The notes beneath the pieces are model-generated. The model worked only from the letters and a program-made list of their open reading frames with translations, was not told the origin of the DNA and made no database searches. A stretch of DNA of 64,000 nt from an uncultured Pirellulales bacterium (GTDB lineage: Bacteria; Planctomycetota; Phycisphaerae; Sedimentisphaerales; Anaerohalosphaeraceae): positions 39,909 through 103,908 of the forward strand of contig CAZQKX010000002.1 in NCBI GenBank assembly GCA_964594065.1. Direction: 5' to 3'. This document shows positions 10,455 to 60,396 of this stretch, piece after piece; the first letter of the stretch is position 1; each line of letters begins with the position of its first letter. Made by a program: the position numbers and the translations under genes.

Positions 10455-10464
10455 GATTACGATC

Positions 10465-23973: not shown

Positions 23974-25650
23974 ATGATTATGAGAAGTGACACGGTAAAA
24001 CAGGGATTTCAACGGGCCCCTCACCGCGGACTGCTGCGAGCGTGCGGGCTTAAATCAGGCGATATGAACAAGCCCTTTATTGCGGTTTGCAACAGCTATT
24101 GTGATGTGGTTGCCGGCCATGTGCACCTGCACGAGGTGGCCAAGGTTGTCAAAAAGGCGATCCGTGATGCCGGCGGCGTCCCGTTCGAGTTCAATACGAT
24201 CGCGGTCTGCGACGGGGTTGCGATGGGACATACGGGGATGAAGTATTCGCTGGCTTCACGTGAGATCATTGCTGACTCGGTTGAGACGATGATGCGGGCT
24301 CATCAGTTTGACGGTATGATCTGTATCCCGAACTGTGACAAGATCGTTCCGGGGATGCTGATGGCGAGTATGCGGCTGAATATCCCGTCGCTGTTTGTCT
24401 CGGGCGGGCCGATGGCCGCGGGTAAAACCAAAGATGGCAAAGTCACGGACCTGATTTCGATCTTTGAGGGCGTTGCGAAATACAACGCCGGCAGAATCTC
24501 GGAAGAGGATCTGGCTGAACTGGAATGTTCGGGGTGCCCGACACAGGGCAGTTGTTCGGGAATGTTTACGGCCAACAGCATGAATTGTTTGTGTGAGGCG
24601 ATCGGGATGGCGCTGCCGGGCAATGGTTCGATCCTGGCGGCAGACCCGAAACGGCTGGATCTGTACGCACAGGCGGGGCGGCGAATTGTTGAAGTGGTTG
24701 TCGAGGACCTGAAGCCGCTGGATATTGTCAATAAAAAGTCGATCGATAACGCATTTATTTTGGATATGGCGATGGGCGGTTCGACGAATACGGTACTGCA
24801 TACACTGGCGATCGCCAATGAGGCGGGTGTGGATTATGGTCTGGATCGCATCAATGAAATCAGCGCCAAGTGTCCGAACATCTGCAAAGTTTCGCCGTCG
24901 AGTGCATGGCACATGGAAGATGTGGATGCCGCCGGCGGGATCAGTGCGATCTTAGCCGAGATTAATAAGGTGGACGGTCTGCTGAATACTGACTGTATGA
25001 CGGTTTCGGGTGTGACGCTGGGCCAGCGCATTAAAGGCGCGGAAACAAAGAATCCCGAATGTATCCATCCGGTCGAAGATGCCTATTCAAAAACCGGCGG
25101 GCTGTCGATCCTTCATGGCAACCTGGCTCCAAATGGCTGTGTTGTTAAGACGGCCGGCGTCGATAAGTCGATGCTGCTGCATTATGGTCCGGCGGTTATT
25201 TTCGAGAGTCAGGAAGAAGCCTGCGACGGCATTCTCGGCGGCAAGGTCAAGGCCGGCGATGTGGTTATTATTCGTTACGAAGGCCCTAAGGGCGGCCCCG
25301 GAATGCAGGAAATGCTGTCGCCGACCAGCTATATCATGGGCGCCGGGTTGGGCGAATCAGTGGCATTGATCACGGATGGTCGTTTTTCCGGCGGCACGCG
25401 CGGGGCATGCATCGGCCATGTCAGCCCCGAAGCGGCGGTCGGCGGACCGATCGGTCTGGTCAAGGAAGGTGACATCATCGAGATCGATATTCCAAATAAA
25501 AAAATTGATGTAAAACTTAGCGAGGCCGAACTGGCCGCACGCAAGAAAGAGTGGGAACCGCGCACGCCGAGTATTACTGATGGTTACCTGGCCAAGTATG
25601 CCAGCATGGCCACAAGTGCCGACACGGGCGCGATTTTGAAATGGGATTAA
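23974..25650 (+). CDS. ilvD: Dihydroxy-acid dehydratase
   Basis: [41 protein letters not shown] and DGRFSGGT motifs; 558 aa. Confidence 0.95.
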
Positions 25651-28707: not shown

Positions 28708-29655
28708 TTAGCTTTTAGATTGATTGTATTCGTTCCACGCCGCGTTGACAATTTTCCGGCATAGCTCGGGAGTCTCAATACCGGCTTTAGCCGCAGCCAT
28801 CGGGACCAGCGAATGGCTTGTAAAACCGGGCAATGTGTTAATTTCCAGTATATATGGAATGCCCGGACTTGTTAAGATAAAATCCACACGAGCCAGATGC
28901 CGGCATTGCAGTTCATTGAAACATATGATCGCATCCTGTTTGATCTCTTTGATCAATTCACTGTCGCTGATCGTGTCAAACAGGTACTCGGTTGTATCGC
29001 TTTCGTATTTCGCATGATAATCATAAAAGTCGGCTTTGCTTTGGATCTCAACAATTGGCAGGGCGACTCCGTTCAATATGCCGACCGTGATCTCCTTGCC
29101 CGGGATAAATTCTTCGACCATGCAATCACCGTATTGGGCAAAACATGCGACGGCGCTGGTCGCGGCTATTTGAACATCATCAGTGATCGTGATGCCGACG
29201 CTGCTGCCTTGTTTGACCGGCTTGACGACAAATTTTTTTGCCAGTTTTTCCAGCATGGGAACCAGGTCTGCTTCGGTGTCGGCGGAGTGGATGATTAAGT
29301 GTTTGGCGATGGGCAGGGTTGCATGGAAAAATGCCTGCTTACTGGCCAGTTTATCGATAGACTTCCGACTGGATTCGGAGCCGGAACCGGTAAAACACAG
29401 GTTTTTTTCTTCAAGAATCTTTTGCAGTTGCCCGTCTTCACCGAATTGACCGTGCAGGATCGGAAAAAAAACGTCAATTGATGAATCGTCCAGAATAAAC
29501 ATGTTGTTGGGAGAAATATCGCTTAAAATAACCTCAAATCCCGCCTCTTTTAACGCGATGTGAACGGTTTGACCGCTTAAGAGGCTGATTTCTCGTTCTG
29601 GGCCAATGCCCCCGGCTAAAACGGCAATTTTGAGTTGTTTAAGTTCTTTTTTCAT
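28708..29655 (-). CDS. ddl: D-alanine--D-alanine ligase
   Basis: LAGGIGPEREISLLSG, FPILHGQFGEDGQLQ, VKPVKQGSSVGIT and LEINTLPGFTSHS. Confidence 0.92.
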   Translation of the reverse strand: MKKELKQLKIAVLAGGIGPEREISLLSGQTVHIALKEAGFEVILSDISPNNMFILDDSSIDVFFPILHGQFGEDGQLQKILEEKNLCFTGSGSESSRKSIDKLASKQAFFHATLPIAKHLIIHSADTEADLVPMLEKLAKKFVVKPVKQGSSVGITITDDVQIAATSAVACFAQYGDCMVEEFIPGKEITVGILNGVALPIVEIQSKADFYDYHAKYESDTTEYLFDTISDSELIKEIKQDAIICFNELQCRHLARVDFILTSPGIPYILEINTLPGFTSHSLVPMAAAKAGIETPELCRKIVNAAWNEYNQSKS

Positions 29656-29687
29656 TGTTATATAAGTATATCGGCAAAAGACACAAA

Positions 29688-29772
29688 AATCCGAAATCCT
29701 AAAATCGAAATCCTAAACAAATTTTAACTCGTTGGTATTTGTTTCGGATCCCGTGCTTAGTACTTCGGATTA
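29688..29772. repeat. Nested direct and inverted ATCCGAAA repeats in the murB-ddl spacer
   Basis: The direct repeat CGAAATCCTAAA occurs at 29692-29703 and 29706-29717. ATCCTAAACAAA (29710-29721) pairs with TTTGTTTCGGAT (29738-29749) at 11/12 positions. The outer pair is AATCCGAA (29688-29695) with TTCGGATT (29764-29771). Confidence 0.7.
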
Positions 29773-29778
29773 ATTATA

Positions 29779-30663
29779 CTACCAGATCTCGATTTCTGTT
29801 TCCAGTTTGACGTCAAACGTATCTTTCACCTTCGTTCTGACCAGTTTGATGAGTTGTTTGACATCGGTGCTGGTGCAGCCTTTTTCAGTGGTAATAAAGT
29901 TGGCGTGCTTTTCGCTGACGACAGCGCCGCCGATCTGTGTTCCTTTCAATCCGGCCCGGTCGATCAATGCCCCGGCACTCATCCCGCGGGGATTTTTAAA
30001 AATACAGCCGGCGTTCTTGGTGTTCAGCGGCTGGGAGTTCTTCTTGTAGATCCAGACCTCCTTGATGGTCTTCAACATCGTGTCAGAATCTGATTCGGTT
30101 AGCTCCAAGGTTGCGCTGAGAATGATTGGTGCGGTAATGTTGACCCAGCGATAGTCAAAGACCAGTTCGGGTTTTTCTTTTTCGAACACATTTCCCTGCT
30201 TGTCCATGACGGTGACACTCTGGATGCTTGAGCCGATATCGCCGAAACTGCTGCCTGCATTCATGCGAACCGCTCCGCCGAGTGAACCCGGGATGCCGGT
30301 CAATGCTTCCATGCCGCTTAAGCCTTTGCGAACCGAGTCCAGAACAAGTTTATTCAGATTGGCTCCGGCACCGGCCGTCAGGGTGTTTTTATCAAATTGA
30401 ATGCCGTGGAATGCTTCGGCTTCCAGTTTCAACACGGCACCCCGTACACCCTCGTCGCCGATCAGCAGGTTTGAGCCATACCCCAGCATATGAACCGGCA
30501 TGGCTTCTCTCGTACAGCGTTGAATGATTTCTTTTAACTGTTCGACCGTCTGCGGCCGAATCAGGTAATCGGCGTTACCGCCTAAGCCGTACCAGGTGAA
30601 ATTGCTCAATGAACAATTTTCTTCAACAATGCTCTCGAAGCCACTGAATGTACTCATCTGCAA
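29779..30663 (-). CDS. murB: UDP-N-acetylenolpyruvoylglucosamine reductase
   Basis: GLGGNADYLI, LGYGSNLL and AGCIFKNP. The start overlaps the murC 3' end by 35-41 nt, and there is no alternative downstream start. Confidence 0.9.
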   Translation of the reverse strand: MQMSTFSGFESIVEENCSLSNFTWYGLGGNADYLIRPQTVEQLKEIIQRCTREAMPVHMLGYGSNLLIGDEGVRGAVLKLEAEAFHGIQFDKNTLTAGAGANLNKLVLDSVRKGLSGMEALTGIPGSLGGAVRMNAGSSFGDIGSSIQSVTVMDKQGNVFEKEKPELVFDYRWVNITAPIILSATLELTESDSDTMLKTIKEVWIYKKNSQPLNTKNAGCIFKNPRGMSAGALIDRAGLKGTQIGGAVVSEKHANFITTEKGCTSTDVKQLIKLVRTKVKDTFDVKLETEIEIW

Positions 30664-32020
30664 CCTTCCAAATAGTTCCGGCTCCCATTGTGACGACCAG
30701 GTCGCCGGAGGTTACGTTTTCTTTTAAATGGTCTAAAATCCCCGAAAAATCCTGTATAAACAAGGCCTGACAGCCATGTTGGCCTATCCGCTCTACCAAT
30801 GTTTCAGCATTCACCTTGCTTTTACTGTCGGCGGTATCCCGGACGAAATAAATCTCCGGGACCACTGTAATATCGGCAAGCTTAAAGCTTTCGGCAAAAT
30901 CATCAAGTAAAAAACGGGTTCGACTGTACTGATGAGGCTGAAAAATGCACCAAAGCCGTTGCGGGGCGTATTTTTCACGGATTGCCTGCAATGATGCCCG
31001 GATTTCCGTGGGATGATGGGCATAATCGTCCAGAATGGTGATTTCGTTGATCGTATCCTTGAACATGAGTCGCCGGTCGATGCCGGTAAAATCGGGCAAA
31101 TGTTTGATGATCGTTTCGATATCCAGTCCGATGTGGAGACAGGTTGCGGTTACGGCCAGTGCATTTAAAATATTATGCCTGCCCGGCAGACCTGTCCGGC
31201 ATCTGCCAAGGAGTGTGTTTTTCTGATAGATGTCAAATGCGTAGCATCCTTCAACCAGTTCCGGATTACGTGCGGTCAGGTCGCAGTGTGCATGAAGGCC
31301 GAATGTTATCACGTTAGGACGGTCTTGAAAACGGCGGATGACACGGGCAACGTTTTTGTCGTCACCATTGGCGATCAGGATGCCATTATCTTTGGTTTGT
31401 GCGGCAAACTCAGCGAATGCTTCAATAATCTCGTCCTCGTTGCGGTAATAGTCCAGGTGATCCTGTTCGATGTTGAGCAGCAGGGCGATATTCGGGTGAA
31501 GATTCAGGAAACTGCGGTCATATTCACAGGCTTCGGCGATAAATGCCGTCCCGCTGCCAACGCCGCTGGAGCTTTTCAACTGCGGGATATCGGCACCGAC
31601 GATATAGTTCGGCTGCTTGCCTGCTTTTTCGAGAATATAGGTCATCCAGCCGCTGGTGGTACTTTTTCCGTGCGTGCCGGCGACTGCGATGCCGTCGTAC
31701 TGGTTCATGAGGATGCCGAGCATTTCGGCATATTTATGAATCGGCAATCCCATTTCCGAAGCCCGGGCCAATTCCGGATTGGCTGCAGTGACCGCTGCGC
31801 TGATGACGACTTCATCTGTGTCTGCGCTGATGTTTTCGGTTTTATGGCCGATGGTAATTGCAGCGCCCAGTGATTGCAGATGCGTTGTGACGGGGCTTTC
31901 GGCCATGTCCGAGCCGGTGACGATACCGCCGTTTTTCATCAAAACCTTCGCTAAGCCGCTGGTGCCGATGCCGCCGATCCCGATAAAATGAAATTTCTTC
32001 CCTTGAATCTCTGTCATCAC
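30623..32020 (-). CDS. murC: UDP-N-acetylmuramate--L-alanine ligase
   Basis: HFIGIGGIGTSGLA, GTHGKSTT and DDYAHHPTEI. Confidence 0.93.
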   Translation of the reverse strand: MMTEIQGKKFHFIGIGGIGTSGLAKVLMKNGGIVTGSDMAESPVTTHLQSLGAAITIGHKTENISADTDEVVISAAVTAANPELARASEMGLPIHKYAEMLGILMNQYDGIAVAGTHGKSTTSGWMTYILEKAGKQPNYIVGADIPQLKSSSGVGSGTAFIAEACEYDRSFLNLHPNIALLLNIEQDHLDYYRNEDEIIEAFAEFAAQTKDNGILIANGDDKNVARVIRRFQDRPNVITFGLHAHCDLTARNPELVEGCYAFDIYQKNTLLGRCRTGLPGRHNILNALAVTATCLHIGLDIETIIKHLPDFTGIDRRLMFKDTINEITILDDYAHHPTEIRASLQAIREKYAPQRLWCIFQPHQYSRTRFLLDDFAESFKLADITVVPEIYFVRDTADSKSKVNAETLVERIGQHGCQALFIQDFSGILDHLKENVTSGDLVVTMGAGTIWKVADEYIQWLREHC

Positions 32021-38950: not shown

Positions 38951-40669
38951 CTAAAACAGGTTCATGGTATAGAGCTTGTGATAGTAGTCACCTTGTTCGA
39001 GCAATTGGGTGTGTGTGCCGTGTTCGACGATTTTGCCGGCGTGCATGACATACAAGTAGTCAGCGTTTTTGACCGTGCTGAGTCGATGTGCGATAATCAC
39101 TGTTGTTCGATTTTGACTCAGCAACTCCAGTGACTGCTGGATGAGTGTTTCGGACTCGGTATCCAGCGAACTGGTGGCTTCGTCAAAAATAAACACCGGC
39201 GGATTTTTCAAAAAGACCCGTGCAATTGAGATTCGCTGTTTCTGTCCGCCGGACAGTTTGACCCCGCGCTCGCCGACATAGGTATCGAAGCCTTCCGGCA
39301 GCGACTGGATAAACTCATCGATATTCGCCTTTTGAGCCGCATCGATCAATTGCTCTTCAGTTGCTGCAAGGTTTCCATACATAATGTTATCGCGGATGGT
39401 GGAGTCAAAAAGAAACACGTTCTGTTGAACGATACCGATGTTTTCCCGCAGAAATTTTTGCTTGAGATCCATGATATCATGGCCGTCGATGCGAATCGTT
39501 CCGGCTTGGGGTTCGTAGAACCTGGGGATCAGCGAAACGATGGTCGATTTTCCCGCGCCGGACTCGCCGACGATGGCGATGGTTTGATGCGCCGGGATTT
39601 TCAGGCTGATATCTTCCAGCACGTGCTCGTGTGATTGTGTGTATTTAAAGCTGACGTTTTCAAAGGTGATCTGGCCGGTGACAGGCTGGAAGGTGTCAGC
39701 GCCTTTTTTGTCCACAATGTCCGGCTCAATGTCCATGACCTCGGTAAACCGCTCAAAGCAGGCGGCTCCCTGCTGGAACTGTTCGGCGAAATTGACCAGC
39801 CGGCGGATTGGATTCAAAATAAAATAGACGTACAATACAAACGCCAGAAGGTCGCCGGAAGTAACATTTTTACCCATATGGATCAGGAGGATGCCGCCGG
39901 CGATGACGATCAGAAAGTAGCTTTCGATCAGCAGACTCATCACCGAAAAGAACACTGCCATAATGCCGTACATCTTTTCTTTTGCCGAGCGAAAGCTGAC
40001 GTTGACGGTACAGAACTTATCGATCTCTTCATCTTCATTGGCATAGGATTTGACTTCGCGAATGCCCTGTACGGAATTTTCGACGCTGCTGTTGATATCG
40101 GCGATTTTCTTGCGAACGTTGCGAAATCCCCGCCGCATACTGCCGCCGTAGAAAACACCCCAGGCGACAAGGAAGGGCAATGGGATGATTGCGATCGCCG
40201 CCAGCGGAGCGTTGAAGTTGAACATGGCGATAAAAGCCCCGATGATCAGCGAGGTCGAGATCAGTAAATCCTCCGGTGCGTGGTGGGCCACTTCGGCGAT
40301 CTGCCCGAGGTCATTGGAGATCCGGCTCATGAGATGGCCGGTCTTGACATTGTCGAAGTAGTTAAAGCTGAGCTTTTGAAGGTGACCGAAAAACTCAGCC
40401 CGCATATCAAATTCCATTCGCACACCGAGAATATGGCCCCATTTAACGCGGATATAGCTCATGGCGGTGGTCAGCAGAATGAGTATCAACATCATTGATA
40501 AGCCCTGAATGATGCCGGCCAGGTTTTCGTTTGGGATGTGTTGATCCAGCAGCCTGCGTGTGACCGCAGGGATGAACACGGTCAAAACGGCCCCGATAAC
40601 GGCCGCGGCCAGCGTGATACTAAGCAGCCTGCGGTGAGGTTTGTAATATTTGATAAATCGTTTCAGCAT
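38951..40669 (-). CDS. ABC exporter, fused permease/ATPase (MsbA/ABCB-like)
   Basis: N-terminal domain of 6 TM helices, Walker A GESGAGKST, signature LSGGQKQRISIARV and Walker B FIFDEATSSLD. Confidence 0.9.
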   Translation of the reverse strand: MLKRFIKYYKPHRRLLSITLAAAVIGAVLTVFIPAVTRRLLDQHIPNENLAGIIQGLSMMLILILLTTAMSYIRVKWGHILGVRMEFDMRAEFFGHLQKLSFNYFDNVKTGHLMSRISNDLGQIAEVAHHAPEDLLISTSLIIGAFIAMFNFNAPLAAIAIIPLPFLVAWGVFYGGSMRRGFRNVRKKIADINSSVENSVQGIREVKSYANEDEEIDKFCTVNVSFRSAKEKMYGIMAVFFSVMSLLIESYFLIVIAGGILLIHMGKNVTSGDLLAFVLYVYFILNPIRRLVNFAEQFQQGAACFERFTEVMDIEPDIVDKKGADTFQPVTGQITFENVSFKYTQSHEHVLEDISLKIPAHQTIAIVGESGAGKSTIVSLIPRFYEPQAGTIRIDGHDIMDLKQKFLRENIGIVQQNVFLFDSTIRDNIMYGNLAATEEQLIDAAQKANIDEFIQSLPEGFDTYVGERGVKLSGGQKQRISIARVFLKNPPVFIFDEATSSLDTESETLIQQSLELLSQNRTTVIIAHRLSTVKNADYLYVMHAGKIVEHGTHTQLLEQGDYYHKLYTMNLF

Positions 40670-50637: not shown

Positions 50638-50710
50638 CTTGACAATAATAGCTAAATAACGATAAAATCACACCGATAGTTGCGATAAATTATTTTGTAG
50701 GGATTTTAAA

Positions 50711-51646
50711 ATGTGCTCCAAAACGATCACCGCGGTGATACCGGTCTATAACAGCGAAGAAAATCTTGAATTATTGTTAGCAAGGCTTTCCAGAGTTTTG
50801 GAAGAACATTCGGAGGCGTATGAGATTATCTTTGTCAATGACAGCAGCCAGGATGCGAGTTGGCAGGTTATTTGTGATCTGACTAATAAAAATCATTCGG
50901 CCAAAGGTGTCAATCTTATGCGAAATTACGGCCAGCATAACGCTCTTTTAGCAGGTATCCGCATGGCACAATATGAGCTGATCGTGACCATTGATGATGA
51001 CCTTCAGCATCCTCCTGAAGAAATCCCGAAAATGCTGAAAAAGCTGGATGAGGGACATGATGTTGTCTATGGCTCTGCAGAAGAAAAGAAACATGGTTTC
51101 TTAAGGAATTTTTCGTCTCAGATAACCAAGTTAGCCTTTCAATCGATCATGAAGGTGCAGGTTGCCCGAAAAATCAGTGCTTTTCGCGTTTTTCGAACAT
51201 CCCTGCGAAACGCGTTCGAAAACTACAATGCCCCCCATCCTTCGATCGATGTTTTGCTGTCTTGGGCCACCGTACGTTTTTCCTTCGTTGACGTCAGGCA
51301 TGAGGAGCGTGAAATCGGGAAATCAAATTATACTTTCAGAAAGCTCCTTGGCCATGCTATAAACATGATGACAGGTTTTAGTACCATGCCGTTACGAATC
51401 GCCAGTTTACTGGGATTCTTTTTTACATTATTTGGCATTGCTGTCTTTCTGTTCGTCTTCCTCCGTTATATGTTATACGGTGCCCCTGTACAGGGATTTA
51501 CTTTTCTGGCTTCAACAATTGCGATCTTTTCCGGTGTGCAGCTTTTTGTCTTTGGTATTTTCGGTGAATATTTGGCTCGCATGTATTCCAGAATTATGGA
51601 TCGCCCCACTTATATTGTACAAGAAATTAAAAAACATTCGGAATAA
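50711..51646 (+). CDS. ArnC/GtrB-like family-2 glycosyltransferase (polyprenyl-phosphate sugar transferase type, 2 C-terminal TM helices)
   Basis: AVIPVYNSEENL, YEIIFVNDSSQD, RNYGQHNALLAG, DDDLQHPPEEIP, EREIGKSNYTF, TMPLRIASLLG and GEYLARMY. As I recall E. coli ArnC, the two are colinear over the full length. Confidence 0.85.
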   Translation: MCSKTITAVIPVYNSEENLELLLARLSRVLEEHSEAYEIIFVNDSSQDASWQVICDLTNKNHSAKGVNLMRNYGQHNALLAGIRMAQYELIVTIDDDLQHPPEEIPKMLKKLDEGHDVVYGSAEEKKHGFLRNFSSQITKLAFQSIMKVQVARKISAFRVFRTSLRNAFENYNAPHPSIDVLLSWATVRFSFVDVRHEEREIGKSNYTFRKLLGHAINMMTGFSTMPLRIASLLGFFFTLFGIAVFLFVFLRYMLYGAPVQGFTFLASTIAIFSGVQLFVFGIFGEYLARMYSRIMDRPTYIVQEIKKHSE

Positions 51647-51667
51647 CCCCCACTTAGATGGCTGATA

Positions 51668-52462
51668 ATGTTTGAATTGCAGTACGAACCTTTAATAATG
51701 AATGAGAAACTGAAACCCTGGGAAATTGCGGTTATTCCCTGGGACTCAGAGAGTTTTGGTTTTGGGGTGTCTGCGTTGGAGCCGTGTTACGATGACAAGC
51801 AAAGTAATCAGGCTGCTTTGCTTGAGGATGCTTTGAAGGCTTATTGCCAAGACAAGCAGGTTCGGTTGATTACCGCTACAATTTCGTCTGATCAACATGC
51901 GGCATCTCTGCTATTGCAGAAGGCGGGATTTTATTTTATTGACCTGTCATTAAGTGTCCATTATGGGAATTTGAAAGATATTTCGACGGGCAGTCCCGCT
52001 GGTTTTTCTTTAACTATGGCAACTCCTGAGGAGATTGATGTGCTTGTGGAAATGGCAGGGCGTTCGTTCCAGCATGGTCGATATCACCTGGACGATTGTT
52101 TTCCCCGGCCTTTAGCCGATCGACGCTATGCCGATTGGCTGAGCCGATGCCGGGACTCCGACAACCCACAGCAAATTTTATGCGCAAGGATTCACGATGC
52201 GATCTGCGGTTTTTCAGTTGTGGAAAACAAGGGTTCTAAGGGCTATATGCATTTACATGCCCTTGATTCAAAATGGCGAGGAAAAAAACTCGGAACCGGT
52301 CTGATTTTACAATCGTTAGATTATTTGCGGGGCTTGGGGGCCGAGACCGCCGGAACAAAGATCTCGTCCTCAAATCTTAATGCGTTAAACATGCATTCTC
52401 GGCTAAATGGACGTTTTACCGCCGCGGACCGATTGCTGCATTGGCATCATCCAGAGAAATGA
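51668..52462 (+). CDS. WecD-like (dTDP-4-amino-4,6-dideoxyhexose) N-acetyltransferase, GNAT fold
   Basis: Blocks are colinear with E. coli WecD from memory: IPWDSESFGFGVS, LQKAGFYFIDLSLSV, SFQHGRYHLD...RRYADWL and NLNALNMHSRLNGRF. Confidence 0.6.
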   Translation: MFELQYEPLIMNEKLKPWEIAVIPWDSESFGFGVSALEPCYDDKQSNQAALLEDALKAYCQDKQVRLITATISSDQHAASLLLQKAGFYFIDLSLSVHYGNLKDISTGSPAGFSLTMATPEEIDVLVEMAGRSFQHGRYHLDDCFPRPLADRRYADWLSRCRDSDNPQQILCARIHDAICGFSVVENKGSKGYMHLHALDSKWRGKKLGTGLILQSLDYLRGLGAETAGTKISSSNLNALNMHSRLNGRFTAADRLLHWHHPEK

Positions 52463-52477
52463 TAACGGAGAACTAAG

Positions 52478-53650
52478 ATGAAAAAGATAGAACTTGCCGA
52501 CAGCAGGGGTGCAATAGAGCTGGCTTATGTGAGAAATATTGCTTATTTATTTGTTTTTTTCCTTTCCTTGTATCTTTATATCAATTGTCCCAAAGATGCA
52601 GACTTACATTTACATATTCGATTTATCGAAAAAATTGACCAGGGCCGCCTTGTTGTTCCGCACTTTCTTTATCACTTGGTTGTTTTTACTGTTTCCAAGG
52701 TTTCACATCTGTCTTTTCACTATGCTTCCTGCCTGGTACTGGCTTCGTGTATCGTTGCTTCGATGATTCTGATCGAGCGGATACTCAGGAATTTTCTGCG
52801 AGGCAGGTATTCTGATTACTTTGTACTTTTTGTTTCTCTATCGTTGATATTTGTGTCAGCGATTTATTTTCCACTGATTAATAAATATCCTTATAAGGTG
52901 ATATGGAGCCCTAATCCATGGCATAATCCAACATATATCGCCGCAAAGCCCTTTGTGCTATTGAGTTTTTATTGGTATACTTTGGAGATAACAAAGAAGG
53001 CGTGTTTTGAAAAGCGATTTTCGGTGATACGCATTTCACTGTTGCTGGTGATTTGTACTTTGATCAAGCCTAATTATGTCCTGGCATTCATTCCTGCTTC
53101 GATTCTTTTTTGTTTTTTTCAGTCCGACAAAATCCGAATGTTTCTCAAAACGGTGCAATTACTGTTACCAGTTTTAATCGTTCTGCTTTTGCAGTATTTA
53201 TTTACTTACTATTATGACGTGAAAGGTTCCAGTTCGATCCAATTTTGTTTTTTTGATGTCTGGCAGGGTCATGCAAAATCGCTGTTTTTGGCGATCTTGC
53301 AGGCGACGGCATTCCCGCTGGTTGCATTCATAGTGATGCGTCCTCGCCTGTCAGGAGATAAGATGTTCTTTTTCAGTTGGGTACTGTTTATCGTCGGATT
53401 ATTTATTTTTGGTTTTTTATGTGAAACCGGGCATCGAAGAGGTCATGCAAATTTTGCCTGGACCTACATGTTTTGTCTGAACATACTTTTTATCTATAGT
53501 ACAATTGTTTTTTTACGATGGATATCTGATATCCCTAAAGATAACAGAGCGTTTCAGATAAAACTATTTTTGTGCAGTATGACATTTTTAATCCATTTTT
53601 TTTCCGGCATCTATTATGTCGGATACTTGATGTCGGGACGGTGTTATTGA
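52478..53650 (+). CDS. Polytopic membrane protein (about 10-11 TM helices), function unknown (GT-C-like or flippase candidate)
   Basis: 390 aa and very AT-rich (20/60 G+C at 52561-52620). An early loop carries acidic residues (CPKDADLH). It is embedded between the WecD-like and WecE-like genes. Confidence 0.7.
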   Translation: MKKIELADSRGAIELAYVRNIAYLFVFFLSLYLYINCPKDADLHLHIRFIEKIDQGRLVVPHFLYHLVVFTVSKVSHLSFHYASCLVLASCIVASMILIERILRNFLRGRYSDYFVLFVSLSLIFVSAIYFPLINKYPYKVIWSPNPWHNPTYIAAKPFVLLSFYWYTLEITKKACFEKRFSVIRISLLLVICTLIKPNYVLAFIPASILFCFFQSDKIRMFLKTVQLLLPVLIVLLLQYLFTYYYDVKGSSSIQFCFFDVWQGHAKSLFLAILQATAFPLVAFIVMRPRLSGDKMFFFSWVLFIVGLFIFGFLCETGHRRGHANFAWTYMFCLNILFIYSTIVFLRWISDIPKDNRAFQIKLFLCSMTFLIHFFSGIYYVGYLMSGRCY

Positions 53651-53674
53651 ACCCAAAAGGAAAGGGAACAACAG

Positions 53675-54808
53675 GTGGCAACCTATCAAATACCTTTTAA
53701 TAAACCATGCTTTGAAGGCAAGGAACTGGTCTACATTGCCGAAGCAATAAGCCGGGGTCACATTTCCGGCGACGGCCATTTTACTCGAAAATGCTCAGAC
53801 TTTTTTGAAACAGAGATGGGATGTAAAAGAGCTTTGTTGACGACTTCCTGTACCCATGCTTTGGAAATCGCAGCTTTATTACTGGATTTAAAGCCCGGTG
53901 ATGAGGTTATTGTCCCCTCGTTCACGTTTGTTTCGACAGCCAATGCTTTTGCACTGCATGGGGCTAGGCTGGTTTTTGCCGATATTTGCCCGGATACGCT
54001 GAATATAGATCATGCCCAGATCGAAGAACTGATTACCGACAGAACCCGGGCGATCGTGCCGGTTCATTATGCCGGGGTAGGATGTGAAATGGATGATATT
54101 ATGGAGATTGCCAAACGCCACGATCTCCTGATTATTGAAGATAATGCACACGGTTTGTTTGGAAAATATAACGGTCAGTGTCTGGGGTCGATCGGTCAGA
54201 TGTCAACATTGAGTTTTCATGAAACCAAAAACTTTACGTGTGGAGAAGGCGGCGCGTTACTTATTAATGACTCTCAATATAAAGAGCGTGCGGAAATGAT
54301 ACGTGAAAAAGGAACCAATCGAAGCCAGTTCTTCCGAGGCGAAGTGGACAAATATACCTGGCGGGATATCGGTTCCAGTTACCTTCCCTCTGACATGCTG
54401 GCCGGTTTTCTTTATGCTCAGCTTGAGGGACGTCAACATATCATGGAGCATCGCAGACGAATCTGGAATTATTATAACGAGTCTCTGAACGAATGGGCTG
54501 TTTCCAAAGGAGTTCGTTTGCCGTTTATTCCATCACATTGTGAACAATCGTATCACATGTTTTATATGTTAATGCCGACGGCCGAAATGCAGCAAGCCTT
54601 TATCGAACATATGAAATCAAACGAGATCCTTTGCGTTTTTCATTATTTGCCCCTGCATCTTTCAGAAATGGGTAAACGATTGAGTATCCCCGAAGGAGAT
54701 TGTCCTGTTAGCGAAGATGTCAGCGGACGATTGGTAAGACTGCCTTTCTTTAATAGACTTTCCAATGAAGATCAGGAGTTGGTTGTCAAAAAGACAATTC
54801 AATTTTAA
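53675..54808 (+). CDS. wecE: dTDP-4-keto-6-deoxyhexose 4-aminotransferase, WecE-like (DegT/DnrJ/EryC1 family)
   Basis: IPFNKPCFEGKELVYIAEAISRGHISGDGHFTRKC, LLTTSCTHALEIAALLLDLKPGDEVIVPSFTFVSTANAF and the PLP-Lys context SFHETKNFTCGEGG. The N-terminus is very close to E. coli WecE as I recall it. Confidence 0.85.
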   Translation: MATYQIPFNKPCFEGKELVYIAEAISRGHISGDGHFTRKCSDFFETEMGCKRALLTTSCTHALEIAALLLDLKPGDEVIVPSFTFVSTANAFALHGARLVFADICPDTLNIDHAQIEELITDRTRAIVPVHYAGVGCEMDDIMEIAKRHDLLIIEDNAHGLFGKYNGQCLGSIGQMSTLSFHETKNFTCGEGGALLINDSQYKERAEMIREKGTNRSQFFRGEVDKYTWRDIGSSYLPSDMLAGFLYAQLEGRQHIMEHRRRIWNYYNESLNEWAVSKGVRLPFIPSHCEQSYHMFYMLMPTAEMQQAFIEHMKSNEILCVFHYLPLHLSEMGKRLSIPEGDCPVSEDVSGRLVRLPFFNRLSNEDQELVVKKTIQF

Positions 54809-55013
54809 GGCCAATATCGTGGAACAGATCAAATGTAAATTTATTGAAGCGTATCAGGAATGGGGAAGAACTTTTTGGATCTGTGTTGTTCTGAATTTGC
54901 TGGCGTTTTCGGGATATATTATTCATCTTACGTATGCCGTTGACGATTATGGGTCACTTTTTTCCAATGTCAGCCATGTTGTACACAGCCGTTGGTTTGC
55001 CGGCTTTATTTAT
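54803..55013 (+). repeat. Direct repeat, left copy (pairs with 56841-57051)
   Basis: The 201-nt core (54803-55003 versus 56841-57041) aligns without gaps with 8 mismatches by hand. This includes a 143-nt perfect run (54835-54977). Confidence 0.9.
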
Positions 55014-55028
55014 AGCCGAATCCATTGA
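54819..55028 (+). pseudogene. Truncated 5' copy of the GtrII/GT-C-like gene at 56857-58401
   Basis: It encodes VEQIKCKFIEAYQEWGRTFWICVVLNLLAFSGYIIHLTYAVDDYGSLFSNVSH..., nearly identical to the N-terminus of the 526-aa protein. It then diverges and stops at 55028. Confidence 0.8.
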
Positions 55029-55375
55029 GGTCTGTGCAAAAGCACTGATTGAAGACAACTCGGGACATAGTAATCCGAGTTTTCTTTTAAATTCTCAAAA
55101 AAACTGTCTGGAAAAGGGAAATATTGATAGTTCAAGATGAATTTGATAAAATTATTGGCATCGAAAGGACTGAATCTTGTCTTGTAAACACGTAAATGGG
55201 AAATCTCAGTCAGTACCGGACAACTTTGATGGACAGTCCGAAAAGGAAAAGAATACCCAAAAAGGTTGTCTGATCCCCTTTATTTTTCTCTGTGCAAAAC
55301 AGTTCCACCTTAATTCAAAGGTGATTCTGTCCAGCGCATGGGGACAACCTTAGATTTCAGTTCAAAGAACAGGCG

Positions 55376-56431
55376 GTGATCGTGAGCAATAAGCAAAAGG
55401 TATTATTTTTTCAGGGACTGAGATCCATTGCGTGTTTTGCTATTATGTTAGTTCATTTCATTTCAATTTTCAAACCCGGATCTTTAAAATACTGGACATC
55501 CGGGACATCGAGCATTTTTTTGGGAGCCTTTAAGGGAAAGGTTGCAGTTGCTTTATTCTGCGTCGTAGCGGGCTATTTCTCAGCTTCTAAAGTTTTTCAA
55601 ATGAAAAAAGACTTTCACTTTGGAAAATATATTTCCCGACGATACTTTCGATTCATGCCGCCGGTTTTATTGGTAAATATCTTTGTATATCTTGCTCACT
55701 TTTTGTATTCAAGTCTCGGCGCCGCCTATGGCCTTACTTCTCCTTATCAAAAAAAATTATTTTCTACAAGAGATATCATTCAAGACGCGCTGTTTTTTAA
55801 TAGCCAGTATAATTCCCCGCTGTGGATTTTAAGAGACTTATTTATTGGTTCCATTCTTGTTGCGTTTCTGGCTTATTATTTTGCTGATAAAAAGAAGAGA
55901 ATTTATGGTTACATCATTTCAATGTTATTTTTGATTGCCTGTGGGCAGTATTGCTTGATGACCTGTGTCATTGGCTTAGTTTTACGTGATGCTGTCATCA
56001 GTGATCTCGTCATAATAAAGCATAAGGTTGTATTGTCTTTATCCTTCCTTGTTGCTTGGTTTATGTGTCAACTGCCGCCCAAAAGTTTTTTGTCTGTAAG
56101 TTGCTTCGTATGGTATGCTTTAGGCACTGCTCTGATGATAGCAGTTATTTTTAATGTAAAAGTAATACAGCGGATTCTCTCCTTGAGACCATTGGTATTT
56201 CTGGGTGATATCTCCTTCTCTATGTATCTTTGGCACATTCCCATTTACAAGGTAATTCCTCCAATCATGTTTTTGGTTTTTGAAACAAAAATAGCTGCTG
56301 ATTTGCTGTTGATCGTTGTTTTTCTGGTTTCAAATTTTTGTATTGTTGGATTATCTTGTTTGTCCAAAAAATATATTGAAAAACTATTACCAGAAACCTT
56401 TGGAAAACTGTGCAATCGTGTATTCAGTTAA
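55376..56431 (+). CDS. Acyltransferase family 3 (OafA/WecH-like membrane O-acyltransferase)
   Basis: 351 aa with about 10 TM helices. The N-terminal motif GLRSIACFAIMLVHF is typical of acyltransferase-3. GTG start. Confidence 0.8.
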   Translation: MIVSNKQKVLFFQGLRSIACFAIMLVHFISIFKPGSLKYWTSGTSSIFLGAFKGKVAVALFCVVAGYFSASKVFQMKKDFHFGKYISRRYFRFMPPVLLVNIFVYLAHFLYSSLGAAYGLTSPYQKKLFSTRDIIQDALFFNSQYNSPLWILRDLFIGSILVAFLAYYFADKKKRIYGYIISMLFLIACGQYCLMTCVIGLVLRDAVISDLVIIKHKVVLSLSFLVAWFMCQLPPKSFLSVSCFVWYALGTALMIAVIFNVKVIQRILSLRPLVFLGDISFSMYLWHIPIYKVIPPIMFLVFETKIAADLLLIVVFLVSNFCIVGLSCLSKKYIEKLLPETFGKLCNRVFS

Positions 56432-56532
56432 AAACTAGTGAGTGAAATAAAGGTGTTCGGAATGCTCCGGAGAAAAACAGCGGGCTTCTGTTTGACGGCC
56501 GAACCGCGACGTTCTGAGACCCGGCGGATGAA

Positions 56533-56805
56533 TTGAGTATTTACAGTTGTCTGAAAAAGCGGCTTGGCCAGCGGGCCGAAACACGACAACTACTGATTAA
56601 CAGTGTAGATAACAAAATCCTTCTCGGGGTCCCCTCGGGGATCGGCATCTCCTGGCTTAATCGGCCCGAAGATGTAAAGGTGATAAAATCCAAATATCTT
56701 CTCGTTGATGAAACTAATGCTGAGTTACTAAAGAACTGTGCTTATTTAAAGTATGATCGAGCAACCTCGGTCGGGGATTTATATATTAATCAGCGGTATG
56801 AATAA
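56533..56805 (+). CDS. Doubtful small ORF inside the cassette (possible gene remnant)
   Basis: 90-aa ORF with a TTG start, no recognisable motif and no clear Shine-Dalgarno sequence. Local G+C is higher than the surroundings. Confidence 0.2.
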   Translation: MSIYSCLKKRLGQRAETRQLLINSVDNKILLGVPSGIGISWLNRPEDVKVIKSKYLLVDETNAELLKNCAYLKYDRATSVGDLYINQRYE

Positions 56806-56840
56806 CGGCAGGTTTTCGATTTGAGTGACCGAAGAAATAT

Positions 56841-57051
56841 TTTTAAGGCCAATATTATGGAACAGATAAAACGTAAATTTATTGAAGCGTATCAGGAATG
56901 GGGAAGAACTTTTTGGATCTGTGTTGTTCTGAATTTGCTGGCGTTTTCGGGATATATTATTCATCTTACGTATGCCGTTGACGATTATGGGTCACTTTTT
57001 TCCAATGTCAGCCATATCGCACACGGCCGTTGGTTTGCCGGTTTCATTTAT
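56841..57051 (+). repeat. Direct repeat, right copy (pairs with 54803-55013)
   Basis: See the left copy. This copy covers the start and the first about 65 codons of the intact 526-aa gene. Confidence 0.9.
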
Positions 57052-58401
57052 AACACATTGCTTCAAAAAAGTTATATGCCGACGTTATCGCCAATCATTG
57101 CTATTGTCTGTTACACTCTGACAGGGATTGGGTTATGCAAATTTTGGGATGTCAGGGGGAAATTGAGATGGATGGTCGTCGCCCTGTGGAGCCTGCACCC
57201 TTATCTTTTAGATGCATATAATTTCAGGATCGCAACGGTTAATCTCGCGATCGTATATCTGATCACGATTGTCGCTCTTTCACTGGTGCCAAAAGGAAAG
57301 AGGGCATTTGTTTTAGCGGTAGTGGTGTTTTACCTTGCACTTTCGATCTATCAGGTTGTTATCGGATTTGCAATTTCTGTGATTATGATACAGCTTTTAT
57401 TACAAAGCTATCGTAACAATTTTTCTTCTGAGTCATTGAAAGAAGGGGCAAAAACATTCTACAGCTATGTACTCATGCTTTTCTGTTCGCTTGTTGTGTA
57501 TGCGGTTTTAACCAAGGCGATTTTGATGGCCTTTGATATTCAGGTCAATTCTCGGCTCCAGGCCGGATTTATCACCAGTTTCGACCAGTTGTTTGTGAAA
57601 ATATGCTGGTTGATGACAATGCTGATACTTCGCCTGTCACCCATTAAAGAATTTGTTTTACCGGCAGTCGGCAAGTGGCTGATTTTTGTAATTATTGTCG
57701 CCGCGGTGATTTCCGTCTTCAAAAGGGGGGGCAAAAAACACAAGGCATTACCGGCGATTTTGTGGGTTTTTCTGATTCCAATCGGAGCGGTTTCTTTCAT
57801 GATTCCTTTAGCGAATTGGAATATACCATGGCGTATGTGTATGGGATTGGTTGTCTTTTTTGCGGGGATGTTTGCTTTGACACAGGAATCATGTTCGGCT
57901 GCTATTCGCAGAATCGCATTTATCGCAGGGGGTATTCTCATTGCTTATTTCATCTGCTCCAACAACACTATGATCTATAAACAGTCTCTGTGCAATCAAC
58001 GAGACATGTTGATGGCAAACCGGATCGTTACGAAAATACAATCCTTAGACCAGTATCAGCCGGGTATGGAACTGGCGATTGTCGGGAGACTTGAAAAAGG
58101 TCCTCAATTTGATAATACGGAAAAGAAATCATGGGAATATGTCAGGAAGTTCGTTAAGTACCAAAGCGAGAAAAGGTATTCGATAACTCGTAGTGCTTTT
58201 GAGACAGATTTGAGTAAGTATTCTATTTTATTGAACTATATGCAAGTTGATTTTCAATCTTCAGACAAGGCGGGTATAGAGAAAGCTCGGCAATGGTCCA
58301 TTGGGCGAAAATCCTGGCCGGACCCGTCATCGGTGTTTATTCAGGAGGATCTGGCTGTCGTGGTTCTCTCGCCGTATACCGATGAGCAGCGAGATATTTA
58401 A
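56857..58401 (+). CDS. Polytopic GT-C-type glycosyltransferase candidate (GtrII-like)
   Basis: About 12 TM helices with an acidic loop-1 motif YAVDDYGSLF...HGRWFAGFIY and a soluble C-terminal domain of about 130 aa. I prefer the ATG at 56857 (MEQIKRKF); the track TTG at 56821 is an alternative. The family call is from memory. Confidence 0.7.
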   Translation: MEQIKRKFIEAYQEWGRTFWICVVLNLLAFSGYIIHLTYAVDDYGSLFSNVSHIAHGRWFAGFIYNTLLQKSYMPTLSPIIAIVCYTLTGIGLCKFWDVRGKLRWMVVALWSLHPYLLDAYNFRIATVNLAIVYLITIVALSLVPKGKRAFVLAVVVFYLALSIYQVVIGFAISVIMIQLLLQSYRNNFSSESLKEGAKTFYSYVLMLFCSLVVYAVLTKAILMAFDIQVNSRLQAGFITSFDQLFVKICWLMTMLILRLSPIKEFVLPAVGKWLIFVIIVAAVISVFKRGGKKHKALPAILWVFLIPIGAVSFMIPLANWNIPWRMCMGLVVFFAGMFALTQESCSAAIRRIAFIAGGILIAYFICSNNTMIYKQSLCNQRDMLMANRIVTKIQSLDQYQPGMELAIVGRLEKGPQFDNTEKKSWEYVRKFVKYQSEKRYSITRSAFETDLSKYSILLNYMQVDFQSSDKAGIEKARQWSIGRKSWPDPSSVFIQEDLAVVVLSPYTDEQRDI

Positions 58402-58443
58402 CATTTTACGAAATGCAAAAAATGAGTCTACATTCGACAGCTG

Positions 58444-60396
58444 CTATTTTAGGTCACTCGGAGCAATAATACGGAAGCGGCCTTTTTCTGAAGTAAATAT
58501 TTCCTTAAGATCCGGGCTGTCTGTAGAAATTGCAATGTTATCATCCCGCACGACGACTAAAAGCTGGTGTTGTGTAAGGTAAGCGATGACTTCCTCCTCG
58601 GTTAGGGATTGTTGGTGCCCAAAAATGTTTTGTACGATTTGCTGCCTTCGGGAAAATTCCTGCTCATCATAGCCATGCATTTCTTTGATGCGCGATACAG
58701 TCATTTCGTAACCCGGTAGTTTTTGGCCATTATCAAATCCGACCCAAAGTGATCGCTGCGCGTAAACGGGAATTTTGGTTTCTTTATCCAGGAAAAAGGT
58801 GTTCATTGAGGAGTTCTTCCTGATCCATCTGTACATTGCATTTTCCTCGAGATCTCTGCTTTCCAGGCAGGTTCCATTCTCGTAATAGGGAGCGACATGA
58901 TCGATATCAAAAATGTTTCGAGGGGACGATTCGAACTGCCATCGGCACAGTTTCAGTGACGGCAGAGCCAGAATGAAAAACAAACCCAATGCCAGCCATT
59001 TTGAGTAATATTTTATTCGACAAAAGGCAATTCCTCCAATAATTCCAAAAGGCAGCAGGCTCAATAACAGAAATTTATATTCAACGCGAGCAGGGAAGCT
59101 GGAAAGCAAATAACAGGCCATATTGGACAGAAATAAACTTACCAGAAGGCATAGGTTTCGGCGATTGAGATTGTCGGCCAGGTATTTTCTAAAAAAGATA
59201 ATAATGGAAAGTGACAGAGAAACCGGAACAAGAAAGTTGAGACTATTACGAAAAAAATTCGACAGATTGAAAAACTCAACTTCCCAAAAGCCTCCGGAGG
59301 AAGAGATTTGCCTGAAATAGGGCAAAACGGCTAATACTGATATAATGGTCAGAACGAATAATGTCACAAAAGTCCGGCCGAATGCCCGGAAATCTTCACT
59401 TTTATATTGAGTTAGCCAAAACAGGGCAATGACACCAACCCAGGCAAGAATGCCCGGCCCAAAAGCGGCATAAAAGAATAAACTGCCGGTTGTTCCCAGG
59501 AGAATGAGAAAGCTGGAAAAAACGCTTTTTTTCTTTTCAAAAAGCTTCATTGTGCCATAGACCATGAGAAGAAAAAAAACAAGGCCTAACGGAATACCGT
59601 TATTGTTATGAAATTTGTTAAGAAGAGGAAAAGCTCGGGGCTCTCCGGTGTAAAATGGAAAGAAACCATGTATTTTTTGCATTGTACTGCTGGTAATAAG
59701 TGTCCCGCAGTAAATCGTAAAAACCGCGGAAAAGATGTTTATTTTTGGGTCATCGATCAACAGGCTCGAGATTTTGTACAAGAGCCACAGACAGCTTGCA
59801 AGTGACAAAACATTGATAATACCAAAAGAACTGAAGGGAGTTATGTTCAGTATTTTGGATAAAAAAGCAGCGGCCCAGGGATAACCCCATTGGTAGTGGA
59901 GAACCTCATCTCCAAATAGAGGATCTAAGGGAGGGCAATTGCCATTCATGATTTGGTAGACAACTTCTGCCCTGAAGAACGTATGAATAGAAGTTACTTT
60001 CATCTCAAAGTTATAGAGATACAAAAGAGCGGTCACCATGCAGCAGATAACGATAACCCACATCGGGTGCAGTTTTTTCTCAGAGAAAAAGAAGCGATAC
60101 AGGAATATGAAACCTGAGACTGTAAATATAGCCAACAGTGACCAAAGCATAAACAGGTGAAGTGCAATATCCTTCTTGATGGCCAGATAATGTTCTAACG
60201 GATATTCATGTTGAATGAGTTGATTGAAGAAGGGTAGTGAACGTTGTTCATAAATTGACCGGACGAAGTCATCCCCTGCCCAGGCAAATAAAATAAGGCA
60301 GGGGATCAGGACCAGGGAAATCGCAGAAAAACCGATCAGCAAAACCCGTTCAAGTCGGCTTAAGAGACTGTATTGATAAAGAAACAGTTTTTTCAT
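58444..60396 (-). CDS. Polytopic membrane protein, GT-C (ArnT/PMT)-like candidate, with a soluble C-terminal domain
   Basis: 650 aa with 12 or more TM helices. Loop-1 is LDPLFGDEVLHYQWGYPWAAAFLSKILNITPFSSFGIINVLSLASCLWLLY. It is AT-rich (19/60 G+C at 59521-59580). It starts 17 nt after the stop of the 984-aa gene. Confidence 0.65.
   Translation of the reverse strand: MKKLFLYQYSLLSRLERVLLIGFSAISLVLIPCLILFAWAGDDFVRSIYEQRSLPFFNQLIQHEYPLEHYLAIKKDIALHLFMLWSLLAIFTVSGFIFLYRFFFSEKKLHPMWVIVICCMVTALLYLYNFEMKVTSIHTFFRAEVVYQIMNGNCPPLDPLFGDEVLHYQWGYPWAAAFLSKILNITPFSSFGIINVLSLASCLWLLYKISSLLIDDPKINIFSAVFTIYCGTLITSSTMQKIHGFFPFYTGEPRAFPLLNKFHNNNGIPLGLVFFLLMVYGTMKLFEKKKSVFSSFLILLGTTGSLFFYAAFGPGILAWVGVIALFWLTQYKSEDFRAFGRTFVTLFVLTIISVLAVLPYFRQISSSGGFWEVEFFNLSNFFRNSLNFLVPVSLSLSIIIFFRKYLADNLNRRNLCLLVSLFLSNMACYLLSSFPARVEYKFLLLSLLPFGIIGGIAFCRIKYYSKWLALGLFFILALPSLKLCRWQFESSPRNIFDIDHVAPYYENGTCLESRDLEENAMYRWIRKNSSMNTFFLDKETKIPVYAQRSLWVGFDNGQKLPGYEMTVSRIKEMHGYDEQEFSRRQQIVQNIFGHQQSLTEEEVIAYLTQHQLLVVVRDDNIAISTDSPDLKEIFTSEKGRFRIIAPSDLK

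Follow-up and report, generated by a model that had tools for sequence, protein, structure and literature searches.

We analysed a 64,000-nucleotide stretch of contig CAZQKX010000002.1 (GenBank assembly GCA_964594065.1, positions 39,909 to 103,908 of the forward strand) from an uncultured planctomycete; this whole stretch is called the window below, and coordinates are counted from its first letter. The subject of this study is a putative glycosylation locus in it, which opens with four genes on the forward strand: a GT2 glycosyltransferase of the polyprenyl-phosphate (ArnC/GtrB/PgfS) type (50711-51646, 311 aa), a two-domain GNAT N-acetyltransferase remotely related to WecD (51668-52462, 264 aa), a minimal membrane protein with a predicted GT-C fold, named P390 (52478-53650, 390 aa), and a dTDP-4-keto-6-deoxy-D-glucose 4-aminotransferase, WecE (53675-54808, 377 aa), with gaps of 21, 15 and 24 nt between them on the map of open reading frames (ORFs). 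Further along the same strand lie a 5' remnant of a GtrII-like gene (54803-55018, copy A of a 212-nt direct repeat), an acyltransferase-3 cassette (55353-56542, with its gene at 55376-56431, 351 aa), the leftover 3' end of a gene that codes for a 503-aa membrane protein (56596-56804, recognised by tblastn against relatives) and the gene of a GtrII-like GT-C protein found with the Pfam model Glucos_trans_II (56857-58401 from an ATG, 514 aa, or 56821-58401 from a TTG, 526 aa). The gene for P650 (58444-60396, reverse strand, 650 aa), assigned a GT-C fold and a C-terminal periplasmic domain with AlphaFold2 and Foldseek, is convergent with this operon. The six forward-strand ORFs had exactly the coordinates given in a preliminary description made from the letters of the window; the functional unit takes in the P650 gene and thus ends at 60396 and not at 58401.

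The GT2 protein matched Pfam Glycos_transf_2 with 101 bits and, over its full length, the NCBIfam models of ArnC (193 bits) and PgfS (184 bits), both under the equivalog cut-offs; at 192.9 bits against a cut-off of 529 for the ArnC equivalog NF007986, it is ArnC-like, not ArnC. Its best matches in the PDB were ArnC (9hwj, 6.4e-51, residues 4-308) and GtrB (5ekp, 9e-51, residues 6-306), followed by dolichol-phosphate-mannose synthase, with soluble and processive GT2s at 1e-5 or worse. It shares 31% of its residues with E. coli ArnC and 29% with GtrB/YfdH, has two C-terminal transmembrane (TM) helices (233-251 and 265-283), and carries DDDLQH at residue 95, DADLQ[DNH] being a motif common to polyprenyl-phosphate glycosyltransferases (10.1101/2025.01.29.634835). 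Sequence alignments to these structures, motif and TM helices thus group it with polyprenyl-phosphate transferases and not with soluble or processive synthases, in line with the preliminary description. By these matches it is a member of the polyprenyl-phosphate glycosyltransferase family, predicted to load a sugar onto undecaprenyl phosphate (Und-P). ArnC takes only an N-acylated amino sugar (10.1101/2025.01.29.634835), a restriction that fits N-acetylation before lipid loading.

The aminotransferase passed the cut-offs of two curated NCBIfam models (NF008687, 567.5 bits for a cut-off of 375; TIGR02379, 536 bits for a cut-off of 435) and matched Pfam DegT_DnrJ_EryC1 with 298 bits. With E. coli WecE it shares 53% identity from end to end, and a PDB search placed 4piw (6.5e-128, ~430 bits) far ahead of ArnB structures (~1e-40, about 140-156 bits). 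At the level of sequence this makes it a true WecE, an ortholog-level match; the two models that it passed carry the names of different C4 epimers (galacto Fuc4N and gluco Qui4N). The GNAT protein matched Acetyltransf_1 with 40 bits. A profile of five GNAT orthologs aligned with E. coli WecD by hhalign at a probability of 89.7% (E 1.9e-6, 180 columns across both domains), and a PDB sequence search with the protein retrieved no WecD structure. The preliminary description had proposed WecE/WecD chemistry for this pair: the WecE half stands, and the WecD half is retained as remote homology only, since the protein scores below the cut-off of the WecD model.

For P390 and P650 no Pfam or NCBIfam match was obtained, even at E<=10. 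We modelled both with AlphaFold2 from homolog alignments and searched the models against the PDB with Foldseek, listing the best 50 matches per search. The P390 model (pLDDT 89.3, pTM 0.91) had as its top matches PglB, STT3, AglB, ArnT, AftB and AftA (probability 1.0, query-normalised TM-score about 0.45-0.57) and describes a minimal GT-C protein without a periplasmic domain; all 26 homologs compared keep D42, the residue at which the first external loop begins. The P650 model (pLDDT 82.2, pTM 0.84) was matched best by STT3, DPY19, AftA, PglB and ArnT (E down to 2.6e-7, probability 1.0), with the highest TM-score for AftA (0.52/0.56), and has ~12 TM segments and, at its C-terminus, a soluble domain. 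Going by these models, P390 and P650 are GT-C folds, and together with the GtrII-like protein the locus would encode three GT-C-fold proteins. A reading of P390 as a flippase or transporter was rejected, since the confident model matched GT-C enzymes only, with transporters at a probability of <=0.2.

An exhaustive profile search of the P390 family returned 3,665 representatives at 50% identity with E<=1e-3, of which 2,284 had E<=1e-30, and none of the members tested had a Pfam domain. Some members reach 580-930 aa and have extra N-terminal sequence or consist of tandem copies; no Pfam domain was recognised in these parts either, and the extensions were for that reason of no use as a Rosetta-stone link. 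No P390 homolog was found in a phage collection or in a plasmid collection, and an origin from either was set aside on that ground. Two distant homologs (L025, L026) lie outside modules of the present kind. A third occurs at L027 (1-17221) among two acyltransferase-3 genes, a PMT_2 GT-C gene and a GT_STM0557_N (Salmonella GtrC-type) gene, with a mannose-1-phosphate guanylyltransferase and a DegT aminotransferase gene, an arrangement that resembles another multi-GT-C modification locus. Orthologs of P650 with 51-63% identity are convergent to wecE at L004, L010-L015 and L029; among the more distant homologs (~30% identity, L016-L020), those whose neighbours were scanned (L017 and L020) are unlinked to WecE or GT2 genes and thus uninformative.

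The GtrII-like protein scored 79.1 bits on Glucos_trans_II (PF14264, cut-off 30), covering positions 4-311 of the 317 in the model, and has ~10 TM helices and a C-terminal domain. A YAVDDY motif lies directly after the first TM helix, at residues 51-56 of the 526-aa form, and T50, Y51, D54, D55 and Y56 are invariant in 17 homologs; 16 homologs are 41-57% identical to the protein. The NCBI record of the contig holds a 514-aa product starting at ATG 56857 and a 69-aa product that clusters with it, and the 526-aa form starting at a TTG has no exact match on record. Because both the homologs and the recorded 514-aa product point there, translation probably starts at ATG 56857 rather than at TTG 56821; the truncated copy has a GTG as its counterpart, ~15 nt past the wecE stop. 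The acyltransferase scored 79.6 bits on Acyl_transf_3 (PF01757, cut-off 31), covering positions 3-320 of the 326 in the model, has about 8-10 TM helices or hydrophobic segments, shows the lowest G+C in the island (0.359; 0.364 at third codon positions, GC3) and is a putative glycan O-acetyltransferase. The family calls of the preliminary description for these two genes are borne out by the Pfam cut-offs. A GT-C fold of the polytopic proteins, whose absence would have counted against its reading, is supported by Glucos_trans_II for the 526-aa form and by the structure matches of the 390-aa and 650-aa models.

The stretch between wecE and the P650 gene is a recombination mosaic and gives direct evidence of cassette exchange at a variable glycan-modification site. 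The 212-nt direct repeat occupies 54803-55014 and 56841-57052 and is 95% identical between its copies. Copy A begins at the wecE stop codon, and the ORF at 54765-55028 encodes the first TM helix and YAVDDY of a GtrII-like protein before the homology breaks off at ~55018. The following acyltransferase cassette (55353-56542) has 82% nucleotide identity, 3' flank included, to an acyltransferase cassette at L014 (8302-9481), where that gene sits directly between wecE and the 650-aa gene. Next comes the 3' end of the 503-aa gene found at L012 and L013 (56596-56804; 55% amino acid identity over the last 69 residues, 71% nucleotide identity), and after this remnant the closing bases of wecE, the spacer behind them and the complete GtrII-like gene. 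In relatives the slot between wecE and P650 is empty or holds either an acyltransferase-3 or a 503-aa gene; here it holds an acyltransferase-3 and a GtrII-like gene. Such exchange marks the acyltransferase and GtrII-like genes as accessory, and the GT2-GNAT-P390-WecE genes and P650 as the core. Three proteins of related loci, of 503 aa (L012), 572 aa (L010) and 490 aa (L024), were considered as relatives of GtrII or P650 and rejected (hhalign probability below 1%, no Pfam hits). Short-read contigs of the same strain stop within the repeat, two of them (L001 and L002) ending at 54864 and a third (L009) starting inside copy B.

Base composition sets the locus apart as well. The stretch 50711-60396 has a G+C of 0.414, compared with 0.481 for the remaining window, and GC3 is 0.36-0.46 in island genes and 0.45-0.65 in flanking genes; since GC3 is also low in the island genes, the dip does not stem solely from membrane-protein composition. 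Counts made by hand for the preliminary description were reproduced exactly (20/60 at 52561-52620, 19/60 at 59521-59580 and 39/60 at 24001-24060), and its suggestion of a variable or acquired locus agrees with the low GC3, the gene remnants and the differing cassettes at the same site in relatives.

Related loci were then compared for gene order. A metagenome locus (L011) has GT2-GNAT-P390-WecE with a convergent P650 gene, and L014, identical with L029 and from a Phycisphaerae metagenome-assembled genome (MAG), has the same order with an acyltransferase-3 gene after wecE. Three further metagenome loci lie beside lpxB. Two of these (L012 and L013) read GNAT-P390-P390-WecE-503aa with a convergent P650 and have no GT2; the third (L010) reads GT2 C-terminal fragment, GNAT-like gene, 572-aa gene, P390 and WecE, again with a convergent P650. 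At L004, from a Planctomycetales MAG, a methyltransferase-WecE pair is convergent with P650, beyond which lie a GtrII-like and a GT4 gene. In a Sedimentisphaerales MAG (L005), mutY and a histidine kinase gene flank a compact operon of five genes, GT2-GNAT-methyltransferase-WecE-GtrII, without any glycosyltransferase besides the GT2 and GtrII. The most informative module is that of the gammaproteobacterial MAG GCA_035546635.1 (L024), where a GtrA-family gene and a 490-aa gene precede GT2-GNAT-P390-WecE, and where wecE is followed by a second DegT gene, rmlA, an rmlC-like gene, rmlD, rmlB and two GT4 genes; identity to the proteins of the window is 32% for GT2, 23% for GNAT, 32% for P390 and 52% for WecE. 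The GT2-GNAT-P390-WecE module thus spans two phyla, reaching from Planctomycetota to Gammaproteobacteria, and at least one genome has it together with the dTDP-sugar pathway and the flippase type customary in three-component systems.

At two of these loci a SAM-dependent methyltransferase of ~282 aa takes the position of P390 upstream of wecE (L004, 79-930; L005, 7623-8468), which suggests a methylated variant of the sugar. It is not a divergent P390, as no similarity was found by BLASTP and it has Pfam SAM methyltransferase domains. The 694-aa gene after GtrII at L005 was considered as a P650 homolog and proved to be a hybrid histidine kinase gene.

The family and fold assignments, the conserved synteny and the mosaic structure are supported directly, and very probably the region serves some form of extracytoplasmic glycosylation by way of a lipid carrier and GT-Cs. 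Our more specific reading, to which we assign a probability of roughly 0.6, is glycosylation of the three-component type with an Und-P-linked 4-acetamido-4,6-dideoxyhexose (Fuc4NAc or Qui4NAc) as donor. RmlA and RmlB encoded elsewhere would supply dTDP-4-keto-6-deoxy-D-glucose, which WecE would aminate at C4, and the WecD-like GNAT would N-acetylate the product to dTDP-Fuc4NAc or to the gluco epimer, Qui4NAc. The ArnC/GtrB-type GT2 would then move the sugar to Und-P at the cytoplasmic face of the membrane, a flippase encoded outside the window would carry the lipid-linked monosaccharide across, and P390, the GtrII-like protein and P650 would attach it to an envelope acceptor, or to several, on the periplasmic side, with an O-acetyl group added by the acyltransferase-3. 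The donor sugar, the transfer to Und-P, flipping, the acceptors and the target of O-acetylation are what we infer from sequence, fold and synteny. The preliminary description had seen here an Arn- and Gtr-like logic, in which an amino sugar is made, N-acylated, loaded on a lipid and transferred, and families, folds and synteny support that logic. We propose more tentatively that the four-gene module both makes and uses Und-P-Fuc4NAc or Und-P-Qui4NAc, with P390 as the cognate transferase, and that several planctomycete GT-Cs share this donor for several acceptors or for an extracytoplasmic oligomer, in the way that mycobacterial Aft/Emb enzymes draw on decaprenyl-phosphate-arabinose.

Several observations weigh against an Und-P-linked 4-acetamido-4,6-dideoxyhexose made and used at this locus. 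To our knowledge, a dTDP-sugar donor is without precedent among the characterised polyprenyl-phosphate GT2s. The structurally characterised relatives ArnC and GtrB use UDP-sugars (10.1101/2025.01.29.634835). The GT2 gene is missing at L012 and L013 and truncated at L010 (17221-17673, a 150-aa C-terminal fragment), while all three loci retain GNAT, P390 (duplicated at L012), WecE and P650, which implies that the GT2 is replaceable or not strictly coupled to the rest. The GNAT aligns with the WecD model PRK10975 over the full length and reaches 29.8 bits for a cut-off of 219. Fold matches cannot separate the use of monophosphate- from that of diphosphate-linked donors by the GT-Cs. The source is a MAG, and no independent assembly runs across the repeat-containing stretch. 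Finally, the 64-kb window holds no rmlA/rmlB, gtrA, arnE/F, arnD, wzx or MATE gene: E. coli GtrA, ArnE, ArnF and WzxE, used as tblastn queries on the window, gave chance-level matches only (best E 0.5-0.8), and no flippase was found with Pfam among the window ORFs scanned. At L024, rmlA, rmlB and a GtrA-family gene adjoin the homologous module. In known three-component systems flippase families vary, and some of these systems have several GT-Cs (PMC11127046, PMC11194591), so the absence of gtrA lowers formal membership and not the mechanistic analogy. A polyprenyl-phosphate sugar synthase and a GT-C are encoded together in the window, and this synteny is kept at L005, L011, L014, L024 and L029.

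Part of this evidence would also suit co-located genes with independent functions, in which the dTDP-Fuc4NAc from WecE and the GNAT goes to a cytoplasmic glycosyltransferase encoded elsewhere and the GT2 makes Und-P-Glc or Und-P-GlcNAc for the GT-Cs. The UDP-sugar donors of ArnC and GtrB fit such a separation, as do the persistence of WecE and GNAT where the GT2 is absent or truncated (L010, L012 and L013) and the embedding of the L024 module in a larger rml/GT4 polysaccharide cluster. We nonetheless hold it to be unlikely. That the GT2 and the tailoring enzymes are coupled is argued most strongly by the conserved gene order GT2-GNAT-P390-WecE, in which the tailoring genes remain interleaved between the GT2 and the GT-C across two phyla. 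At L005, moreover, the GT2 is the only glycosyltransferase that could consume the dTDP-sugar, and with no other consumer there the tailoring enzymes would feed the GT2/GT-C pair. The Planctomycetota loci examined lack an initiating phosphoglycosyl transferase, Wzx and Wzz, and have GT4 genes only at L004.

The parallel with Arn (an aminotransferase, N-acylation, an ArnC-like GT2 and a GT-C), and the adjacency of three related loci to lpxB, raise the further thought of a charge modification of lipid A in the style of Arn, Lgm or Flm, where the Und-P sugar would be de-N-acetylated and a cationic 4-amino sugar put on lipid A or core, giving resistance to cationic peptides. This is improbable, given that no ArnD, NaxD or LgmC-type deacylase occurs in the window or the related loci and that a sequence match to ArnT/PMT_2 is lacking for all three GT-Cs; the lpxB adjacency belongs to one closely related lineage and is seen neither here, with nadB as the neighbour, nor at L005, L011, L014 and L024. 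The polytopic proteins might instead be polymerases, ligases or oligosaccharyltransferases acting on undecaprenyl-diphosphate (Und-PP) glycans, with P650 resembling STT3/PglB, or extracytoplasmic polymer builders resembling Aft/Emb. STT3 and PglB are indeed the best fold matches of P650, AftA has its top TM-score, P390 matches AftB and AftA as well, and several GT-Cs per locus recall arabinan synthesis. Set against this, no WWDYG-type motif was found in the P650 sequence on direct reading, no WaaL, Wzy or SEDS protein was among the best 50 Foldseek matches per search for P390 and P650, and the locus has no genes for assembly of Und-PP-glycans, so that we would give this alternative small odds; its polymer variant is compatible with, and not opposed to, an Und-P-linked 4-acetamido-4,6-dideoxyhexose as donor.

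The island is surrounded by housekeeping genes (nadB, bioA/bioD, pcm, uppS, cdsA, murB, murC, ddl, ilvD and recO), and the names of homologs assign the source to Planctomycetota. Among these uppS, for undecaprenyl-diphosphate synthase, adjoins cdsA, and murC, murB and ddl form a peptidoglycan block (9597-11250 and 28708-32020); an MsbA-like ABC half-transporter is encoded at 38951-40669. All of these are ordinary genes, yet they bear on lipid-carrier supply. The 73-nt spacer between nadB and the GT2 gene contains a near-consensus sigma-70-like site (TTGACA-18 nt-TAAAAT, 11/12 match, 50639-50668); promoter and terminator scans of the region gave numbers not above shuffled expectation and were uninformative. 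Beyond P650, a 984-aa secreted protein, P984 (60414-63368, reverse strand), has a signal peptide and DUF5060, collagen-binding-like and GH115_C domains. Its gene lies upstream of P650 in the same orientation, only 17 nt away, and may be co-transcribed with it; we excluded it as a member of the system, as its adjacency to P650 is not conserved at other loci.

The strategy proposed here is a familiar one; what would be new is the predicted donor chemistry, together with two GT-C families that have no Pfam or NCBIfam model. Known donors of three-component and Arn-type systems are Glc, Gal, GlcNAc/GlcN, GalN, Ara4N, GalA and pentofuranoses. As the preliminary description had surmised, no Und-P-linked Fuc4NAc, Qui4NAc or viosamine donor and no module of this kind was found in the literature searched, which was itself incomplete and thus gives absence of evidence only. 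If our reading is true, this would be the first dTDP-derived 4-amino-6-deoxyhexose to take the polyprenyl-monophosphate route, which would widen lipid-linked donor chemistry; ArnC/GtrB-type enzymes could take dTDP-sugars, and P390 would found a large unclassified GT-C family (~3,700 clusters at 50% identity). The locus gives functional context to two GT-C-fold families without a model, one of them very large. For a phylum about whose envelope glycans little is known, it also points to a surface-glycan determinant that is variable and shows cassette exchange and gene remnants. Since E. coli has dTDP-Fuc4NAc of its own, the predicted lipid should be readily testable there.

We finally compared the locus with characterised systems. 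One close system is the three-component GtrA/GtrB/Gtr(type) O-antigen glucosylation of Shigella and Salmonella phages, also represented by yfdGHI of E. coli CPS-53: common to both are a GT2 of the GtrB type that carries DxDLQ and ends in two TM helices, a Glucos_trans_II GT-C with an acidic motif after the first TM helix, associated acyltransferase-3 O-acetylases, cassette-like variability and low G+C. The locus differs in having no gtrA, in its WecE and GNAT, which imply a 4-acetamido-4,6-dideoxyhexose donor and not glucose, in its three GT-Cs, two of them from families without a model, and in its chromosomal position in Planctomycetota without prophage context. With the Arn system (ArnBCADTEF) it shares a DegT 4-aminotransferase, N-acylation before lipid loading, an ArnC-like GT2 and a GT-C as end transferase. 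Here, however, the aminotransferase is a WecE ortholog and not ArnB, the predicted acyl group is N-acetyl from a GNAT in place of the N-formyl of ArnA, and the GT-Cs stand outside the ArnT/PMT_2 family; ArnA, ArnD and ArnT had no tblastn match in the window at E<=1, an ArnE/F homolog was likewise not found there, and membership of the Arn class therefore fails. The dTDP-Fuc4NAc branch of enterobacterial common antigen synthesis (RffH/RffG/WecE/WecD/WecF) has WecE in common with the locus, with a remote, two-domain likeness in WecD. WecF, WzxE, WzyE, WecA and WecG are lacking at the locus, rmlA/rmlB are unlinked, and the predicted consumer is a polyprenyl-phosphate GT2, whereas in the antigen pathway a cytoplasmic Leloir glycosyltransferase acts on lipid II. 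The pentofuranose three-component systems and the mycobacterial decaprenyl-phosphoryl-arabinose-dependent Aft/Emb systems (PMC11127046) likewise have dedicated enzymes for a non-hexose lipid-monophosphate donor, vary in flippase type and at some loci have several GT-Cs, and P650 and P390 are predicted to fold like AftA and AftB; in those systems the donor comes by way of a phosphoribosyltransferase from phosphoribosyl pyrophosphate, whereas here it would be formed by a GT2 from a nucleotide sugar, and the sugar class differs.

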